Shown: one piece after another, positions 17,324 through 41,425 of the stretch
Layout: each line of letters opens with the position of its first letter
Numbering within the stretch: position 1 is the stretch's first letter
Source: an uncultured bacterium
GTDB taxonomy: Bacteria; Patescibacteriota; Minisyncoccia; Phycocordibacterales; UBA5272
NCBI GenBank assembly: GCA_903875555.1
Contig: CAIQWN010000045.1
Location: 1,535-65,534 of the forward strand
Direction of reading: 5' to 3'
DNA length: 64,000 nucleotides
The notes under the pieces: model-generated
What the model was told of the DNA's origin: nothing
Seen by the model: only the letters and a program-made list of their open reading frames with translations
The model's database searches: none
Position numbers and translations under genes: made by a program

Positions 17324-17414
17324 ATTCACCCTGTTAAATAAAATTTGAAACATGAAGCCAGTTTCAAATTTTAATTTTAAGATAACGTCTTAAAATTATT
17401 TAACAGGGTAAAAA
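17324..17414. repeat. stem-loop built from the 18-bp motif attcaccctgttaaataa and its inverted partner ttatttaacagggta, with a nested small palindrome
   Basis: Copy A 17324-17341, copy B 17397-17414; a third copy (C) lies at 18337-18354. Confidence 0.6.
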
Positions 17415-17611: not shown

Positions 17612-18274
17612 ATGTCTCAAACTCAACAAATAATACAAGAAGAGGGTCCGATTGATTTCTTGGTAAAGTCTTGGAAATGGATACTTTTTTGGTTTACACT
17701 TCTGTGTTTCGTTGGTATTTTTACTTTTGACAACGGAAAAATATCAACATTCTGGGGTGTGGCCACGGTGATTTCCACGATCACGGTGTCTGGATCATGG
17801 AATCGCGTCATAGACCTGATCGCAAAAATTCCTGGACTGTTTATGCTTGCATTGAAAAACTGGAAAGTCGTCTTACCGTCTGTGATGTGTACATACGCAC
17901 TGTGTGTCTGGTTAAATAACAATTTGACCACAAAACTGTTTATTGTGTCTATACTGTCGATACTAATTCCACTTTTTGTGCATTTCAAGTGGTACAACAA
18001 ATTATGGACAATACTCGGCAGCGCAATAAACGGCGGATTCAAGAAATATCCATTGGAAAGCTTTCTGGTTTTGATTGGAGTAATATCATTAGCAATAATT
18101 GTTGTCGCTTTCACATTCGGTGCAAGACCTGAAAGCTCTACTTTAATGTTTGTTGGTGGTATTGGATTATTCGGTAGTGGGTTGTTTCTTGTCTGGCTCG
18201 CTGGAAGATCTATCAAGAAAGCACTAGACCCATACGCAAACAAATATTTCGGAATAGAAGAGAAAAAGAAATAG
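17612..18274 (+). CDS. hypothetical polytopic membrane protein
   Basis: 220 aa, about 6 hydrophobic helices, bracketed by the 18-bp inverted repeats. Confidence 0.5.
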   Translation: MSQTQQIIQEEGPIDFLVKSWKWILFWFTLLCFVGIFTFDNGKISTFWGVATVISTITVSGSWNRVIDLIAKIPGLFMLALKNWKVVLPSVMCTYALCVWLNNNLTTKLFIVSILSILIPLFVHFKWYNKLWTILGSAINGGFKKYPLESFLVLIGVISLAIIVVAFTFGARPESSTLMFVGGIGLFGSGLFLVWLAGRSIKKALDPYANKYFGIEEKKK

Positions 18275-18300
18275 ACACAACAAGCAAGTTGTGTAACACG

Positions 18301-18335
18301 GCGGGATTCTAATCGAATCCCGCTGGTTTTATTTT
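18301..18335 (+). terminator. intrinsic terminator
   Basis: gcgggattc-taatc-gaatcccgc followed by tggttttattttttat. Confidence 0.55.
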
Positions 18336-18336
18336 T

Positions 18337-18354
18337 TATTTAACAGGGTGAATA
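18337..18354. repeat. 18-bp motif copy C (ttatttaacagggtgaat), exact reverse complement of copy A
   Basis: Exact reverse-complement match to 17324-17341. Confidence 0.6.
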
Positions 18355-18438
18355 TTTTATGTTAGTATTTCTTTGATTGTTGCTTATATTAGTTTTATAT
18401 TCCTTAATTTCTATATATTTTGAGAAAGGTGGTACGAA

Positions 18439-18840
18439 ATGAAAAAAATACTTACAAATAATGGTGTTTCTGGATTCGGGTTTGGTGGGCACACAGATCA
18501 CCAAATTCAATCTGACTGTTTCACTCAAGACCAAATTTCATCTGTTGTTGATAGAATCAGATACATTTTAGGAGAGTCTGAACTAAGCCACGACAAACTT
18601 AATGAACCACTTGAAAAGCTTTTTGAAATGATACACTCACAATTTTTACTCGATGTTTGCAGTGTGTGTGATGAAGAAAATTTCAAAATACTTGAGACTT
18701 CAATTGAAAAAAGTGTTGATAATTACGAGGAAACACTGGCACGTCTCGTGCCAAACCACCAAGAAATACTTGAAAGCTCGAGAAGAAAAATCATAACTGA
18801 TGAAATTTATCATTTACTGATACAAAAAGTTCAAGAATAG
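18439..18840 (+). CDS. hypothetical protein, member of a two-copy paralogous family in this window (paralog at 38277-38576)
   Basis: Shared block IHSQFLLDVCSVCDEENFKILETSIEKSVDNYEETLARLVPNHQEIL versus IHTQFLLDAYNVCGEENFKALEASVNMGNEFYETTLKHTIPNYEEIF. Confidence 0.5.
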   Translation: MKKILTNNGVSGFGFGGHTDHQIQSDCFTQDQISSVVDRIRYILGESELSHDKLNEPLEKLFEMIHSQFLLDVCSVCDEENFKILETSIEKSVDNYEETLARLVPNHQEILESSRRKIITDEIYHLLIQKVQE

Positions 18841-19202
18841 GGAGAAAATAATGAAAATAAAAAAGCCCCTGCTTTGTAAATGCGACTAATGATGTCGCAT
18901 ACACAATGCAGGGGCCTTTCGCTTTAGAGATTCTACATAAGTTTCAACAACTTAGATAATTAGTTAAGGACATCTAGGGGATTGTCCTTAAAAGAGCGAA
19001 TAATTTAGAAACAAATTATTAATTTTGGGCGGTCTTAAAAATAAACTCACTATGACCGCAAAATAAAGAACTGTTTTGGTGGAGGATTGTGCGAACTTAA
19101 TATCCCGTTACGCACGGGCGAGCGTTTTCACTACATCTCCTCTACCCTAATTTATATTATAAACGACAGGAATTTTAACACAAGTGTCTTTAATAATTTT
19201 CC

Positions 19203-19211
19203 TGTGGATAA
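19203..19211 (+). promoter_or_regulatory. perfect DnaA box TGTGGATAA inside a 490-bp structured intergenic region
   Basis: cctgtggataactgt, nearly identical to the motif at 12326-12340. Confidence 0.3.
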
Positions 19212-19329
19212 CTGTCTTTTAATAAATTTAGTGTCTTTAATATTTCCTAAAATGTCCTTATAAACAAATAACTTTTTGGCTTTTTATTTTGCTTGCAATG
19301 TCTCTTTGTAATTTATAGAGTATCACTTA

Positions 19330-20073
19330 ATGCGATTACATCGCTTCTATACAACACAACCCCTTGGTGAAGAGATTGTTAAAATAGGTGATCAGAATAT
19401 AATAAATCAATTACTTAATGTCTTTCGATTTAAAGAAGGACAGGAGGTTATTTTGTTTTCACAAGATAATTACGATTATCACTATTTGATAGACTCTTAC
19501 ACAAAAAAAGAAATTACTTTTAAATTAAAAAGTAAAGAACTTAGCATAGTTCCACAAAAGAAAGTGACTTTGTATATGTCGCTTGTGAAAAAAGATACTT
19601 TTGAGACCGTTGTTAGAACTTGCACCGAACTTGGTGTTACACAGATTGTTCCAGTTATGTCTGAAAGATGTGAGAAGAAGAATTTAAACGAGGAAAGATT
19701 AAAAATTATATCAATCGAAGCCTCTGAACAGTGTGGACGGACAAATATTCCTATCATTTCACCAATCATTTCTCTAAAAGAAGCTATCGAAGCGCAGATT
19801 GTCGCAGAACAAACGCAGAATAACGCAGAAGGAACACAAACACGCAACATTGTTGCGTCACTTTTTGGTGAGAAAATTAACAGTGAAGATGTAAAAAAGG
19901 TTATTTCCTCACCTGTACTCAATATTTTTGTAGGACCCGAAGGAGGTTTCACCGATAATGAAGAAAAAATGTTTGACGAATCATGTTTCACTAAAATAAA
20001 ACTCACTGACACCATCCTAAAAGCCGACACCGGCGCCCAGGCAATAGTAGTACTTGCGATGATACTTGGTTAG
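19330..20073 (+). CDS. rsmE: 16S rRNA (uracil1498-N3)-methyltransferase
   Basis: 247 aa, MRLHRFY..., RsmE-like length and layout with a C-terminal SPOUT-like GPEGGF motif. Confidence 0.75.
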   Translation: MRLHRFYTTQPLGEEIVKIGDQNIINQLLNVFRFKEGQEVILFSQDNYDYHYLIDSYTKKEITFKLKSKELSIVPQKKVTLYMSLVKKDTFETVVRTCTELGVTQIVPVMSERCEKKNLNEERLKIISIEASEQCGRTNIPIISPIISLKEAIEAQIVAEQTQNNAEGTQTRNIVASLFGEKINSEDVKKVISSPVLNIFVGPEGGFTDNEEKMFDESCFTKIKLTDTILKADTGAQAIVVLAMILG

Positions 20074-20076
20074 TCA

Positions 20077-20092
20077 TTAGGAAGTTATTCGT
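20077..20092. repeat. short repeat ttaggaagttattcgt (also present in both arms of the 38578-38663 hairpin)
   Basis: 16-nt exact match plus a shared downstream tagttaa. Confidence 0.5.
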
Positions 20093-20202
20093 CGATAGTT
20101 AAATAATCTTAAGAGCTATGATATAATTTAATTATGTTTAAAGAGTCAACCTTGGAATGTTGAATATGGAAGAAAAATTTCTATTGAAGATCTTGAGAAT
20201 GA

Positions 20203-20604
20203 GATGGAATAAATTATGAAATAGTTTATGATAGCGAGAAGTTAGATCATATGTTTGCTAATTTAATTGATAACTCTATTAAATATACAGAGAAAGGAGG
20301 TGTGGTTGTTAAATTATATGGAAATGAATTTTATGTTTTGATAGATGTTGTTGATACTGGGCGAGGTATGTCAAAAACTTTTATCGATACTCAACTTTAT
20401 AAAAAATTTGCTCGTGAAGAAAATGTATCTACGAATGTGGATGGTAATGGTCTTGGTATGTATTTCGTAAAAGAGGTTGTTGAATTACACAAAGGAAAGA
20501 TTTCTGTTGTGTCAGAGCAAGGTAAAGGTTCTACATTTACTGTGGCCATACCAACGAAACTTAAGGAGCAGTCTAGTGAGGTTAAAGTAGGGGAAATCAA
20601 GTAA
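20203..20604 (+). pseudogene. histidine-kinase remnant: HATPase_c domain only (N, G1 and G2 boxes), truncated by an upstream in-frame stop
   Basis: NLIDNSIKYT (N box), DTGRGM (G1) and GNGLGM (G2). The frame continues upstream (DGINYEIVYDSEKLDH) to the TGA at 20200-20202; no HisKA H-box or sensor is present. Confidence 0.5.
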
Positions 20605-35294: not shown

Positions 35295-36275
35295 CTAAAA
35301 AGGATTAACGGCTCCACGCACCTCAAAGTGTAAATGAGGTCCTGTTGAATGACCAGTATTTCCTGTTGCACCAATAACCTCTCCTTGTGATACTGTTTGA
35401 CCAATTGAAACATTTACTTTACTTAAATGAGCATAAACTGTTTGTATATTATTGTCGTGAGCAATAATAATCATGTTTCCATAACCTCCATTATAACCAC
35501 TTGTTTTTGTAAGAATAATTCTTCCGTTACCAGACGCCATAACAGGTGATCCCGTAGGTATACCGATATCAATACCATTATAACCATGCAGACCTTGTGT
35601 TTTTCTTCCGCCAGTAACAGGCCTTATCAAAAATCCATCCGCAAAAGTATTAGAATAAGATTTTACTAATTTACTATAACCATTTGCTAATTTAGAACTT
35701 GATGTTTTTGGTACAGACACACTTATTTCACCTTCCGGAACAAGAATAACATCGCCAACTGTAAGTTCTGTGTCTTTTGTTATTCCGTTAAATTTGGACA
35801 CATCATTAATATCTGCTTTATACTTTTTAACAATAGATAAAAGTGTTTCTCCTTTTTTAACTGTGTGTTTAATACCAGTTATCGGCAAAATAACTATTGT
35901 GTCTCCAACAGTAAGACTGTTTGATTTCAAATCATTCGCCCACACAATTGTATTTTTAGAAACACCAAACATTTTTGCAACACTCGCAAGAGTATCTCCC
36001 TTTTTAACTTCATAAACAGAAATCTGATCTGTTGTAGGAAAATCAACATCCTCTGTAGACAATCGAAGCATGCCGGTAGTTGCAGATAAACTATTAGAAG
36101 TTGAAGCGTCTTCTATAACAGCTTCATTTAATTCTTGAGCATCAACCACGTTTGGTTTCAAAACATCCATCATTTGAGAATTTTTGTTTGAATCTTCTTC
36201 CGATCCACTACCCCCAACAATTATAAATTTAACCCTATCTACTAAATTAGAAAAAACGGAAGCCTCCGCTTGCAA
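35295..36275 (-). CDS. LysM-repeat plus M23 family metallopeptidase (cell-wall hydrolase)
   Basis: Two LysM repeats (KKGDTLASVAKMFGVS; KKGETLLSIVKKY) and M23 motifs (GIDIG...; HLHFEV). The annotated start is a TTG; a signal-peptide-like sequence continues in-frame upstream. Confidence 0.8.
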   Translation of the reverse strand: MQAEASVFSNLVDRVKFIIVGGSGSEEDSNKNSQMMDVLKPNVVDAQELNEAVIEDASTSNSLSATTGMLRLSTEDVDFPTTDQISVYEVKKGDTLASVAKMFGVSKNTIVWANDLKSNSLTVGDTIVILPITGIKHTVKKGETLLSIVKKYKADINDVSKFNGITKDTELTVGDVILVPEGEISVSVPKTSSSKLANGYSKLVKSYSNTFADGFLIRPVTGGRKTQGLHGYNGIDIGIPTGSPVMASGNGRIILTKTSGYNGGYGNMIIIAHDNNIQTVYAHLSKVNVSIGQTVSQGEVIGATGNTGHSTGPHLHFEVRGAVNPF

Positions 36276-36566
36276 AGGAAAAAGTACCAGTGATACCGGT
36301 ATTACAGAAACTATATTTCGTAAAGCTTTGCTTTTGATTATTTTTACTAAAATAGATTTGATGAAAAGATATATTTCTTCTCTTTTTTACTTGTTTTCAG
36401 AATAAAACTCTCAGGAATATCAGTATTAGTTTCCACAAACATTTCGTGTGGGGGATTAAGTAATACTAGCAAAAAATGATCACAAAAACAAATAGACAAA
36501 CACACAGAAAATTGTGTATAAGTTATGAAAAATAAATAAAATATAGGGTATAATTAAATAAATATT

Positions 36567-38258
36567 ATGGATGATGGCACAAATACAACAACAATAGACA
36601 AAAAAACTTTTCCTATTCCTGTTTTAGAAAAAGAAGACCTAGATTCTGAACTTAAAGAATTGGATACTAAACTGAAAGAACTAGGTACTTCTATTACTTC
36701 TGGTAATGCTGATTTAAAAAAAGAAACAGACGCTTTGTCTACCTTAGAAAAGAAAAGAGGTGTGTTACTTGAGGGAATGGTTTTAAAAAATGAAGAACTT
36801 AAACTTTTAGATGAGAGTAAGTCGGAAAACAAACAAAAAGTAGCCACTTTAAAACAAGAAATTATTAAAATAGAAAAAGAATCAAACGAATTACTGGAAT
36901 CTATTAATAAACTAAATCCTGAAAAAACACAAGAATCTTTAATTGTGTTAGAAAAAACCAAAGATTCTGTTTTAAAAAGATCTTCTGAAGTAGATTTTAC
37001 TTTAAAAAATGCTGAAGTCCTAAGACCTTTTCCAAAGAAACTAAAAACTAGCAGGGATTTAAAAGACCTCTCTAAATATTCACAGTCTTCAAACAAGGGC
37101 GAGAGAATAGAGTTATATAACGATGTAAAAGATGATCCTAATGCTGCAAATCTATTAAGCAACATGTTTAGAGATGATCAGCTTTCTGCCGAGAAAGAGC
37201 ATATTGAAAAAAAGATAGATGAAAAAGCAAAAAATGTTGTGGACGAAGCAAAAAAAGAAATGGAAAGAAGGGCTGAAGAAGCTAAAAAAGTTGTTAAAGA
37301 CATAATGAATGGAAAATCAGTAGGTAAGGAAATTATTTCTCTTCCTATATTAAATGATGTGGTTAATTCAGTAGAAATACCTCTACAAATTGAAAGAAGT
37401 AAAGGTTTGGTTTCTAAAATTTTAGAAGGTCTAAAAAAGAAAAGTGATTTTTTAAAAATGACTCCACACAACAGAAACATTCTTCTAGTTGGTTTACTTA
37501 TGACAATAGGGGTTGGTGTCGTTGTTCGTGCCAATAAAGACACAGAGCTTCCTAATGCTCCACAAAAAAAAGAAGCACTCGTTAAGGAACCTGAAAAATT
37601 AATTTTGCCTGTGCTAATCGAGAAAAAAGAAGCAATAAAAGATGAACCAAAAATAACACCACTTCCAGTAGAAAAGATGGTACCTGTAACTGCACCAGAA
37701 ATAAAAACTGAAAGATTCTTAACATATGACCCAAAACAAAATTGGATGCTTGCAATGGTTCTTGCTGAAAAAATACCAAAAAAGAGCCCAGAAGAGTTAA
37801 ACAGTTTAGTAAAATTTAGAGAGGAAATCAAAAATCTAAAAAATGATGACAATATTAAAAATTATATAAAAAAATATCTAGAAGAAAAAGGTTATCATGG
37901 TTTTGATGATTCAGGCTATGCTTTACTCTCATCAAAAATAAGCACAGACCACACTGACGATGTTGTAATGTATAAAAAAAATACAGTAATGGAGATAATT
38001 GATGAAAAAAAGATTCCACTAACAAAAGCAAGAGCTCTTTCAGTTCTTCAAATGTTCAGAGGTGATGTAGAAAGATCAATAAAAATAGGGGACAGTGAAG
38101 CAATTAGTTCTATAGAACTTCAACCATTGCTTGAAAAATTATATTTATTATCAATAGTAGATAAATTAAATCCCGAAAAACTTTCTGATGAAAAATTACA
38201 AGAAACTAGTTACGTGGAATTTATTAAAACAATTGCCGAAGAAGAAAGAACAAAATAA
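36567..38258 (+). CDS. hypothetical bitopic membrane protein: N-terminal coiled-coil region, one TM, C-terminal extracytoplasmic domain
   Basis: 563 aa, K/E-rich heptad-like N-terminus, TM ILLVGLLMTIGVGVVV; a TATAAT (36549-36554) lies 12 nt upstream of the ATG. Confidence 0.45.
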   Translation: MDDGTNTTTIDKKTFPIPVLEKEDLDSELKELDTKLKELGTSITSGNADLKKETDALSTLEKKRGVLLEGMVLKNEELKLLDESKSENKQKVATLKQEIIKIEKESNELLESINKLNPEKTQESLIVLEKTKDSVLKRSSEVDFTLKNAEVLRPFPKKLKTSRDLKDLSKYSQSSNKGERIELYNDVKDDPNAANLLSNMFRDDQLSAEKEHIEKKIDEKAKNVVDEAKKEMERRAEEAKKVVKDIMNGKSVGKEIISLPILNDVVNSVEIPLQIERSKGLVSKILEGLKKKSDFLKMTPHNRNILLVGLLMTIGVGVVVRANKDTELPNAPQKKEALVKEPEKLILPVLIEKKEAIKDEPKITPLPVEKMVPVTAPEIKTERFLTYDPKQNWMLAMVLAEKIPKKSPEELNSLVKFREEIKNLKNDDNIKNYIKKYLEEKGYHGFDDSGYALLSSKISTDHTDDVVMYKKNTVMEIIDEKKIPLTKARALSVLQMFRGDVERSIKIGDSEAISSIELQPLLEKLYLLSIVDKLNPEKLSDEKLQETSYVEFIKTIAEEERTK

Positions 38259-38276: not shown

Positions 38277-38576
38277 ATGGATCAAGAAATACTATACAAA
38301 CAAATAATAGAGGAATGGGAACTAGAAAATGTACCAGAAGATGATAGAACAGAAATTCTAGAAGAAATTGCTAAAACAATACATACACAATTTTTACTTG
38401 ATGCTTATAACGTGTGTGGTGAAGAAAATTTCAAAGCACTAGAGGCTTCTGTTAATATGGGAAATGAGTTTTATGAAACAACCCTCAAACACACAATTCC
38501 AAACTACGAAGAAATTTTTCAGAGAGCAAAAGAAAAAGTGTACATCTCCTTCAAAAAACAAGCACACCTTAGTTAA
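38277..38576 (+). CDS. hypothetical protein, paralog of 18439-18840
   Basis: About 45% identity over a ~70-aa shared block (see 18439-18840). Confidence 0.5.
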   Translation: MDQEILYKQIIEEWELENVPEDDRTEILEEIAKTIHTQFLLDAYNVCGEENFKALEASVNMGNEFYETTLKHTIPNYEEIFQRAKEKVYISFKKQAHLS

Positions 38577-38577
38577 T

Positions 38578-38663
38578 CGTTAGGAAGTTATTCGTTATTA
38601 GTTAACACAAGTCCAGTTTCGCTTTGCGAAACTGGACTTACGACTAACGAATAACTTCCTAAC
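38578..38663. repeat. 86-bp perfect composite hairpin (outer 20-bp stem cgttaggaagttattcgtta, inner hairpin agtccagtttcgc-tttgc-gaaactggact); likely terminator
   Basis: The outer arms contain the ttaggaagttattcgt motif shared with 20077-20092. Confidence 0.6.
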
Positions 38664-38695
38664 GAACAACGAAACGATTATGTTAAACTCTTTTA

Positions 38696-40633
38696 ATGAC
38701 AAAATACGTAATCGGACTTAACGAAAGACAAAAAGACGCTATTAAATACACTGAAGGACCATTACTTATTTTGGCTGGGGCTGGGGCTGGGAAAACTAAA
38801 ACCATAACTGAAAGAATTGTTCAAATAATTAAAAACGGGGTAAACCCAACAAATGTTTTAGCGGTAACTTTTACAAATAAAGCCGCAAGTGAGATGCGTG
38901 AAAGAATTACTCATCGATTAATAGAAGAAAAAATTGCTGAAATTAATCAATACGTTGAAAAACCTATAATAAAAACTTTTCACTCTCTCGGACTTATGAT
39001 GTTATCTGAACAAAGTGAAAATGTGGGATTACACAAACACCCAACAATACTCGATTCGTCTGATTCTCTTTCTATAATAAAATCTGCTTGTGAAAAATTA
39101 GGAGTTGATACTAAGACACATGACCCATCAAAAATAAGAAACATTATCTCACGAGAGAAAGGTGACTTTACTTCTGTGTCTGAATACGAAAAAAAGGTAG
39201 TGAGCGCACAAATGGAAATAGTATTATCTGTGTGGCGACTTTATGAGGAGGAATTAAAAAATCAAAAAGCAGTAGATTTCGATGATTTAATTATAAAAAC
39301 TGTTTTAATGTTAGAAAAATACAAAAATATAAGAGATTACTATCAAGATAGATTTAAATATATACATATAGACGAGTATCAGGATACCAATGCTGCACAA
39401 TATGCTTTGGTTAAATTATTGGTCAACGAAAAAACAAATAATCTTTGTGTGGTGGGGGACACTGATCAAAATATTTATTCTTGGCGAGGAGCAAATCTAA
39501 AAAACATAATGAATTTCGAACATGATTTTCATAATACAAAAATTGTTTTACTTGAAGAAAATTATCGCTCTACAAAAAATATTCTTTCTCTTGCTAATAA
39601 TACAATTAAAAAAAATACTGTTCGTAAAGATAAAAATTTATTCACTTCAAAAGAAGAAGGGGACAAAATAGAAATTTGTCCTGCGTGGGATGAGGGAAGT
39701 GAGGCAGAAATGATTGCCAAAAAATGTAAAGATTTATTAGACAGGGGTGTTGATGGGAAAAATATAGCTATTTTATATAGAGCAAATTTTCAATCGCGAG
39801 TTCTTGAAGAGTTTTTTATAAAAGAAGGGGTTGAATATAACTTATTAGGAACAAAATTTTTTGAGAGAAAAGAAATTAAAGATGTAATGAGTTATTTACG
39901 TGCAGCACTCAACAGGGATTCACAGCCAGATTTAAAAAGAGTTTTTGATACACCCAAAAAGGGAATAGGTAAGACGAGTGTGTTAAAAATTTTTACAGGT
40001 GAGGAGTTACCGCCAAAAACACAAATAAAAATAAATAATGTTTATGAGTTTTTAGATAAAATAAAAACACTACTCGACACAGAAAAACTTTCTCATATCA
40101 TGCAAATGATAATTGTTGATTCTGGAATGGAAAAAGAAATGTTGGAAGGAAGTGACGAAGACAAAGAAAGACTAGAGAACGCGCGCGAACTTGTTTCTTT
40201 CACTTTAAAATATGATGAAAAGGTGGCAAGTGAAATCATTCATGAGTTTCTAGAAGAGGTAGGACTTATGAGTGACCAAGACAATGACAAAAAGGAGCAT
40301 AATGGGGTCAGACTTATGACTGTTCATTCATCTAAAGGACTCGAGTATGATTATATTTTTATTTCTGGGTTAGAACAAGATTTATTCCCACATAAAAATA
40401 TCGGTAATAAAAAAAGAGGTGTTGAGGAAGAGGAAGAAGAGAGAAGATTATTTTATGTGGCGGTTACTCGTGCTAAAAAAGTTCTGTATCTTTGTTATGC
40501 GGAATTAAGAACAATATTCGGGCAAAAACAAATTAATGCTCCGAGTGAATTTCTAGAAGATGTACCAGAAGAAATTAGAAATGACAACGATTTGTATTAT
40601 AAACAAAACGGTGGTAAGGTGGTTTACATATAA
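38696..40633 (+). CDS. UvrD/PcrA/Rep family ATP-dependent DNA helicase
   Basis: Walker A AGAGAGKT; motifs TFTNKAA, DEYQDTN, VGDTDQNIYSWRGA and VHSSKGLEYD. Confidence 0.85.
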   Translation: MTKYVIGLNERQKDAIKYTEGPLLILAGAGAGKTKTITERIVQIIKNGVNPTNVLAVTFTNKAASEMRERITHRLIEEKIAEINQYVEKPIIKTFHSLGLMMLSEQSENVGLHKHPTILDSSDSLSIIKSACEKLGVDTKTHDPSKIRNIISREKGDFTSVSEYEKKVVSAQMEIVLSVWRLYEEELKNQKAVDFDDLIIKTVLMLEKYKNIRDYYQDRFKYIHIDEYQDTNAAQYALVKLLVNEKTNNLCVVGDTDQNIYSWRGANLKNIMNFEHDFHNTKIVLLEENYRSTKNILSLANNTIKKNTVRKDKNLFTSKEEGDKIEICPAWDEGSEAEMIAKKCKDLLDRGVDGKNIAILYRANFQSRVLEEFFIKEGVEYNLLGTKFFERKEIKDVMSYLRAALNRDSQPDLKRVFDTPKKGIGKTSVLKIFTGEELPPKTQIKINNVYEFLDKIKTLLDTEKLSHIMQMIIVDSGMEKEMLEGSDEDKERLENARELVSFTLKYDEKVASEIIHEFLEEVGLMSDQDNDKKEHNGVRLMTVHSSKGLEYDYIFISGLEQDLFPHKNIGNKKRGVEEEEEERRLFYVAVTRAKKVLYLCYAELRTIFGQKQINAPSEFLEDVPEEIRNDNDLYYKQNGGKVVYI

Positions 40634-40639
40634 CTATTT

Positions 40640-41425
40640 ATGAAACCAAAAAAGTCATTTGGGCAAAACTTTTTAACATCTATTCCGGCAAGGAACGAGA
40701 TTGTAAAAGCGGGAGATTTAAAATTGGGAGATGTTGTTTTAGAAATTGGTCCAGGAAAAGGAATTCTTACAGAAAAAATGTTAGAGGAGGGAGCAACAGT
40801 TTACGCGGTTGAAAAAGACAGGGAGTTAATACCAATACTTACAGAAAAATTTGCGAAGAACATTAAGGAAAGTAAGCTAATTTTAATAAACGACGATATT
40901 TTGAATTTTAGTTTTGAAAACTTAAAATTAAAAATTATAAATTATAAATTAATTGCTAATATTCCATACAACATAACTGGTGCAATCATAGAAAAATTTT
41001 TAAGCGAGGAAAACAAACCAAATTTGATGGTTATACTTGTGCAAAAGGAAGTTGCAGAAAGGGTCGTGGCACGAGACAATAAAGAATCTATACTTTCTCT
41101 TTCGGTAAAAGTTTATGGTGAACCAAAAATTATTTATAAAGTAAACAAAGGGAGTTTTTTTCCTATTCCAAAAGTAGATAGTGCTGTTTTAAAAATTTCT
41201 AACATATCGGACAGAAATTTTGAAAATAAAAAACACAAAAAAAACTTTTTCAAAGTTGTTAAAGCCGGGTTTTCTCATAAAAGAAAGTTTTTGATTAGTA
41301 ATTTGAAAGAAAAGATTCCTGAAATAAATTGGTATGAGGCATTTACTAAAAATAATTTAAATGAAAAAACAAGAGCCGAAGATATAACTTTAAAAAACTG
41401 GCTCATGATTTCTAAAAATATTTAA
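40640..41425 (+). CDS. rsmA: 16S rRNA (adenine1518/1519-N6)-dimethyltransferase
   Basis: FGQNFL and LEIGPGKG motifs; 261 aa. Confidence 0.9.
   Translation: MKPKKSFGQNFLTSIPARNEIVKAGDLKLGDVVLEIGPGKGILTEKMLEEGATVYAVEKDRELIPILTEKFAKNIKESKLILINDDILNFSFENLKLKIINYKLIANIPYNITGAIIEKFLSEENKPNLMVILVQKEVAERVVARDNKESILSLSVKVYGEPKIIYKVNKGSFFPIPKVDSAVLKISNISDRNFENKKHKKNFFKVVKAGFSHKRKFLISNLKEKIPEINWYEAFTKNNLNEKTRAEDITLKNWLMISKNI

Follow-up and report, generated by a model that had tools for sequence, protein, structure and literature searches.

Two paralogous small helical proteins of a Patescibacteria genome as probable divergent branches of the DUF5663 superfamily, one of them encoded in a conserved gene pair

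Two small proteins encoded in a 64,000-nucleotide stretch of bacterial DNA (the window) are best explained as cytoplasmic, acidic, four-helix proteins of about 100 aa that represent two divergent branches of the DUF5663 superfamily. The gene of the 99-aa protein directly follows that of a large coiled-coil protein, an arrangement that recurs in every related locus, while the gene of its 133-aa paralog appears to stand alone. The candidate phyla radiation (CPR, Patescibacteria) has small genomes in which much of the conserved gene content is without known function. The present analysis ties two orphan-looking proteins to an existing uncharacterised family whose Pfam model misses a whole subfamily, and it offers a first concrete lead on that subfamily, namely that its gene is strictly paired, and in some cases fused, with that of a fast-evolving coiled-coil protein whose neighbour is a peptidoglycan peptidase gene. 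Should the interaction prove real, it would open a way into a structural system specific to the lineage; otherwise the annotation is still improved. The advance is modest and holds no surprise. The window has a G+C content of 28–34% and its genes include those of RNase Y, ClpP, RsmE, KsgA and UvrD; this gene content, together with the relatives described below, places it in the Patescibacteria.

The two small proteins are encoded as follows:

38277–38576, plus strand: 99-aa protein, acidic and all-helical, of a divergent DUF5663-like subfamily, with its gene just 5´ of uvrD
18439–18840, plus strand: 133-aa paralog, of a rare and deep-branching subfamily

The initial annotation had described these reading frames as a two-member family of homologous proteins, and this description holds. 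BLASTP with compositional adjustment, under which the initial annotation had expected a spurious similarity to disappear, aligns the two over 79 aa with 43% identity and 63% positives (E 1e-19). The Smith-Waterman score is 164, compared with 30.6 ± 5.6 (maximum 56) for 2000 shuffles, which corresponds to a z of 23.9. The motif IH[ST]QFLLD..C.EENFK.LE.S..YE.TL..PN..EI, noted previously, is present in both. A family HMM applied to all six-frame ORFs of the window recovers the two proteins alone and no third copy. Both are acidic (pI 4.9 for the 133-aa and 4.6 for the 99-aa protein), and neither contains a hydrophobic segment or a signal peptide. The 133-aa protein has a non-conserved N-terminal extension of about 30 aa. 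The AlphaFold2 (AF2) model of the 99-aa protein consists of four helices with a pLDDT of 86.

The initial annotation could assign neither protein to a family. This remains correct for direct curated matches: Pfam, NCBIfam, PHROGs and PADLOC returned nothing above cutoff for the two small proteins or the two proteins encoded upstream of them, and neither small protein matches the Pfam model of DUF5663 (PF18908; gathering cutoff 23.7 bits) even at E ≤ 1. It does not hold for profile searches, which connect both proteins to PF18908. An exhaustive HMMER search of 1.84 billion representative proteins with a four-sequence profile (A1; E ≤ 1e-3) retrieved 36 representatives. The nearer relatives (P0009–P0022) match no Pfam family, PF18908 included, and 15 of the more distant representatives match PF18908, six of them above the 23.7-bit cutoff over the whole 84-position model with up to 48.9 bits. 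P0036, P0028, P0032, P0040, P0023 and P0027 score 24–49 bits on PF18908 and have E-values of 5.8e-6 to 7e-4 with the A1 profile (1.84e9 proteins); the best Pfam scorer, P0036, has an E-value of 4.4e-4. In hhalign, the near subfamily (A3) aligns with the DUF5663-matching set (A4) over 99 columns (probability 99.3%, E 1.3e-20), and an HMM built from the DUF5663-matching proteins alone gives the window proteins scores of 70.9 and 46.5 bits; this comparison set was picked by its likeness to the query profile, and the E-values of the A1 search refer to the entire library. We conclude from these profile comparisons that the 133-aa and 99-aa proteins are divergent branches of the DUF5663 superfamily, beyond the reach of the Pfam model.

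The homology of the window proteins to proteins that pass the Pfam cutoff is full-length. The DUF5663 superfamily is typical of CPR bacteria, and the window proteins share its character: they are single-domain, all-helical proteins of about 100 aa (four helices in the AF2 model), and the related loci all belong to metagenome-assembled genomes (MAGs) of Patescibacteria. PF18908 members and window proteins are alike in length (about 95–105 aa) and acidity, and they show the same order of motifs, an N-terminal (L/I)..LPEE.Q..(I/L)L followed by a C-terminal (V/I)PN(Y/L).E(I/V). Unlike canonical DUF5663 members, the window subfamily has the core I(Q/H)(K/T)QFL.D...GEE.F.AL.AS..MG.EFY.TTLKH.VPNYEE and a fixed gene context. 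In ten metagenomic loci, the neighbours of canonical DUF5663 genes are mixed (infB with an S1-domain gene, pcm, a Mur ligase gene, genes for large unknown proteins and some membrane proteins); the canonical gene is found after infB, after pcm or before the Mur ligase gene, and no neighbour is common to the ten loci. Membrane proteins are thus not generally associated with canonical DUF5663 genes in these loci.

Other searches yielded little. Word-index homolog searches gave three close relatives of the 99-aa protein and, for the 133-aa protein, itself alone; a further search of this kind gave three proteins. A PDB sequence search with the family profile produced one match, which we took as chance, and literature searches found no papers on DUF5663 or PF18908. 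Both paralogs weakly match the N-terminal chaperone domain of PrsA/SurA-type peptidyl-prolyl isomerases (NCBIfam NF002824, model positions about 36–116, E 1e-3 and 1.7e-2). We rejected this as a chance helical match, given scores of 18.4 and 14.5 bits against a cutoff of 360 and the lack of an isomerase domain, a signal peptide, a lipobox and structure-search support.

The surroundings of the 99-aa gene contain the following features:

35295–36275, minus strand: LysM/M23 peptidase gene (Pfam domains), divergent neighbour of the partner gene
36567–38258, plus strand: 563-aa partner, in which a coiled coil at the N-terminus precedes a single hydrophobic segment, a Pro/Lys/Glu linker and, at the C-terminus, a domain of about 170 aa
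38572–38670, unstranded: hairpin of about 100 nt between the 99-aa gene and uvrD (−54.4 kcal/mol, z −11)
38696–40633, plus strand: UvrD/PcrA-type helicase gene (Pfam domains), conserved downstream neighbour

An earlier genome scan with narrow patterns found no loci, and a broader alignment had no stretch conserved enough for a genome scan. A scan of one genome per GTDB species then gave 34 loci with the 99-aa type, all in Patescibacteria MAGs labelled Paceibacterota, Nomurabacteria and similar. The gene order is the same in all 34: LysM/M23 peptidase on the minus strand, followed on the plus strand by the large protein, the small gene, UvrD/PcrA and KsgA. UvrD is 65–74% identical across the 34 loci, which makes these genomes fairly close relatives whose synteny is partly just inherited. 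The arrangement is also that of the closest relatives of the window (L001 and L007) and of the fusion locus L050 described below, and the peptidase gene is found in its place wherever a related locus reaches far enough upstream. The large and the small gene are separated by at most 16 nt in 33 of the 34 loci, by 4 nt in L001 and L007, and by 18 nt in the window. Additional genes separate the small gene from uvrD in L019, L034 and the P0008 contig; none separates the large partner from the small gene in the 34 loci or the P0008 contig. The two genes would be co-transcribed and probably translationally coupled. The 34 orthologs of the 99-aa protein have 45–60% identity, with 45–58% to the window copy in the comparison of loci, a degree of conservation that resembles that of the housekeeping neighbours and is unlike that of the large partners; the M23 peptidase is 50–67% identical.

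Some minor features of this locus may be recorded here. The 99-aa gene has no obvious ribosome-binding site. The hairpin at 38572–38670 is very stable, is not followed by a U-tail and may be a palindromic repeat element; half of one of its arms recurs at 20075–20094, just after rsmE, and L007 has an ordinary short terminator at the corresponding place.

The large partners contrast with the small protein in their variability. The 563-aa protein is bitopic and coiled-coil, as previously described, with one strong hydrophobic segment (residues 302–324, hydropathy 2.05). It is positionally equivalent to the partners in the 34 genomes; these are hypervariable and 331–1595 aa long, and BLAST finds no similarity between them and the 563-aa protein. 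Iterated HMMs revealed a C-terminal domain of about 195 aa common to 22 partners, with the motifs W..., KYAPS..NNPS, GL..QR.E and T..LY..R, and most of the remaining partners show weak collinear matches to it. This domain has no match in Pfam or PDB (nothing below E 0.009 in a PDB profile search). By iterated HMMs and hhalign, the partners of the window, L001 and L007 have no detectable homology to the 22-partner domain or to the fused domain described below; these three share a common architecture and a similar extreme C-terminal motif. Short motifs, GTF and (V/P)GGE(L/M/I)(K/R), precede the coiled coil at the N-termini of partners L016–L048, and KKTFPIP in the 563-aa protein is a possible variant. 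Upstream of the 563-aa gene, a TATAAT box ends 12 nt before the ATG (36549–36569) and no Shine-Dalgarno sequence is visible; given this spacing, the transcript may be leaderless or nearly so.

The initial annotation further raised the question whether members of the family always sit beside membrane proteins. Both upstream genes in the window do encode membrane proteins, but this does not extend to the family, in which many 99-aa-type partners have no hydrophobic segment and the canonical DUF5663 contexts are varied. About ten partners reach a hydropathy of 1.6 at the equivalent position, 160–276 aa from the C-terminus, and several more are borderline. L025, L035 and L045 have lost the segment by deletion, and it is absent from the 325-aa partner of L050 (maximum hydropathy 0.56). 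Because the segment is missing in many partners, membrane anchoring is not the conserved property; the conserved partner feature in the 99-aa type is the C-terminal soluble domain.

In two lineages, the gene boundary has shifted so that the C-terminal domain of the partner is covalently joined to the small protein. In P0007 (220 aa) and P0008 (236 aa), about 130 additional residues precede a C-terminal family domain. Those of P0008 align with the C-terminal ends of the L027 (E 1.6e-5) and L048 (E 6.8e-5) partners, and a profile of the fused domains matches both clusters of partner C-terminal domains collinearly (E 3.4e-5 and 7e-6). Within L050, P0007 is found where the small gene would be expected, between the 325-aa protein and uvrD; its AF2 model (pLDDT 90, pTM 0.57) has no fold match. 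These fusions are the strongest indication that partner and small protein act jointly. Since the partners of the window, L001 and L007 have no detectable homology to the fused domain, the evidence from the fusions reaches the window by position and architecture only.

In the best-supported reading, the 99-aa protein would be a dedicated subunit, adaptor or chaperone that docks on the C-terminal domain of the upstream partner, and the 133-aa protein a stand-alone paralog. The analysis shows that the two proteins are homologous and linked to DUF5663, and it shows the order of the genes, the fused lineages and the signals for transcription; we infer the physical interaction and any cellular role. 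We give this reading an even chance. Most likely the 99-aa protein binds the upstream-encoded protein as a stoichiometric subunit, be it an adaptor or an assembly chaperone, and its docking site is proposed to be the C-terminal globular domain. Small dedicated assembly chaperones that bind the C-terminal region of their partner are known, as RbcX for RbcL and FliS for flagellin. The fusions P0007 and P0008 are indirect support for binding of this kind; the likeness is one of analogy, and no fold match to a solved member of these chaperones stands clearly above background. The flanking charges of the strong segment of the 563-aa protein favour an N-in orientation, which would make the C-terminal domain extracellular, while the 99-aa protein has no signal peptide; this topology would conflict with direct binding. 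As the pair adjoins a divergent LysM/M23 peptidoglycan peptidase gene, a role as a cell-envelope or division scaffold is a reasonable guess, and only a guess.

The 133-aa gene has a different setting:

17612–18274, plus strand: 220-aa polytopic membrane protein, 5´ of the 133-aa gene, a neighbour with no sign of functional partnership
18299–18335, plus strand: intrinsic terminator between the 220-aa and 133-aa genes (11-bp stem with 7 G-C pairs, then a T-run)
18337–18368, plus strand: promoter-like site of the 133-aa gene (TTAACA-17-TAGTAT at 18340–18368, extended TG), overlapping the 17-mer TATTTAACAGGGTGAAT
18860–18919, unstranded: G+C-rich hairpin just 3´ of the 133-aa gene, nearly identical in L049

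Both small genes had been described as immediately downstream of a membrane-protein gene. This is accurate for the 99-aa gene; the 133-aa gene starts 164 nt 3´ of the 220-aa gene, with the terminator between them. Beyond the terminator follow the promoter-like site, the ribosome-binding site GAAAGGTGG, the 133-aa gene and the second hairpin, which is probably a terminator working in both directions. With a terminator ahead of it and a promoter and ribosome-binding site of its own, the 133-aa gene is, by these predicted signals, its own transcription unit. The 220-aa protein is polytopic, as stated in the initial annotation (4–5 hydrophobic segments), and has no family match in Pfam or NCBIfam. 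The layout is repeated in L049, which carries P0010: the same terminator, promoter motif and downstream hairpin are present, and a weakly similar polytopic membrane gene (E 9e-4) takes the position of the 220-aa gene. The hairpin is near-identical in the two, whereas the proteins encoded beside it have diverged to about 40% identity. The adjacency is conserved in L049, the single relative available, but L049 is close enough to the window for their intergenic DNA to be nearly the same. Rfam contains no family for the non-coding stretches flanking the 133-aa gene, and the hairpin at 18860–18919 gives only hairpin-type chance matches. The 490 nt between the 133-aa gene and rsmE (18841–19329) hold no convincing ORF.

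Among the 1.84 billion proteins, the 133-aa subfamily has only two other representatives, P0010 and P0016. The three group together with a neighbour-joining (NJ) bootstrap of 98, outside the entire uvrD-linked clade. This deep branching means that the duplication is not recent, or that the 133-aa copy is fast-evolving. A recent duplication within the clade of the window, hinted at by the shared IHTQ and CGEENF motifs, received 0 of 100 bootstraps in the NJ tree and was rejected.

These observations do not support the recurring two-gene module suggested in the initial annotation: the two upstream proteins are unrelated (polytopic in one case, bitopic and coiled-coil in the other), the 133-aa gene is a separate transcription unit, and the contexts of canonical DUF5663 genes are varied. 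What survives is a conserved pairing with the upstream gene in the 99-aa type (34 of 34 genomes, plus the fusions), which does not extend to the 133-aa type. The 133-aa copy would be an independently transcribed, stand-alone paralog, and its position after a polytopic membrane gene would reflect inherited synteny and not a second instance of a module.

Several other explanations have to be weighed. The small proteins may act alone in a housekeeping role of DUF5663 (RNA, ribosome or stress), the link with the upstream gene being inherited gene order. This is unlikely, yet it deserves to be taken seriously. The canonical members occur in varied housekeeping contexts (infB with an S1-domain gene, pcm, Mur ligase), an rRNA methyltransferase gene lies close to each window copy (rsmE at 19330, ksgA at 40640), and the 133-aa gene is predicted to be monocistronic and has an exact 17-mer in common with the clpP upstream region. 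However, CPR genomes are dense with such genes, so that proximity means little, and the short gap in 33 of the 34 loci, the lack of insertions and the two fusion lineages point to a specific link in the 99-aa type.

The preferred reading, in which the 99-aa protein docks on its partner, could be carried further. The uvrD-linked DUF5663-like protein and the coiled-coil partner of variable length might form a CPR-specific structural apparatus (perhaps a division, envelope or host-attachment scaffold that works with the LysM/M23 peptidase) in which the small protein is an obligatory assembly factor for the C-terminal domain of the partner. We regard this proposal as quite improbable; if true, it would provide the first function for the DUF5663 superfamily.

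Both copies might instead be accessory factors of membrane proteins, each serving the one encoded upstream. Both upstream genes in the window encode membrane proteins, L049 retains a polytopic membrane gene 5´ of the 133-aa ortholog, and a common sequence motif lies 5´ of both the 220-aa and the 133-aa genes. Against this stand the unrelatedness of the two membrane proteins, the terminator and separate promoter that split the 220-aa and 133-aa genes, the loss of the hydrophobic segment in many 99-aa-type partners (L025, L035, L045 and L050) and the often soluble neighbours of canonical DUF5663 genes, and we consider the explanation very improbable.

Hardly credible, finally, is a toxin-immunity or polymorphic-effector cassette in which the large protein delivers a C-terminal toxin that the small acidic protein neutralises: a small acidic protein is encoded only a few nucleotides behind a large one of very variable length, and CPR bacteria live on host cells, but the variation is the reverse of that in polymorphic toxins (a hypervariable C-terminal toxin behind a conserved N-terminal delivery region, with a co-varying immunity protein, in a mobile or variable locus), the C-terminal domain and the small protein being conserved and the N-terminal region variable; all genomes have the locus at a fixed place among housekeeping genes, PADLOC, PHROGs and viral contigs give no match and Pfam and PDB no toxin family for the C-terminal domain, and a permanent fusion of toxin and immunity protein would make little sense. 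A phage origin was likewise rejected, as viral contigs contain no relatives.

Two further elements of the window were noted, the first of which is the following:

17324–17413, unstranded: inverted-repeat element of Y shape, located between clpP and the 220-aa gene, with the 17-mer TATTTAACAGGGTGAAT in the outer arms

The exact 17-mer occurs twice in the window, once on the minus strand facing clpP and once at 18337–18353, where it overlaps the −35 of the predicted promoter of the 133-aa gene; the sequence recurs with two mismatches at 17397–17413. The Y-shaped element is about 85 nt long (−32 kcal/mol, z −10), and its outer stem is built from the two 17-mer copies near 17.3–17.4 kb. Rfam contains no family for it. 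The element is conserved in L049, with compensatory changes in one hairpin, and it or the 17-mer may act as a shared operator or represent a small structured RNA. The second is a 117-aa ORF at 20251–20604 that consists of HATPase_c only (model positions 9–109 of 111), with neither a dimerisation nor a sensor domain, and possibly represents a kinase gene that is truncated or split.
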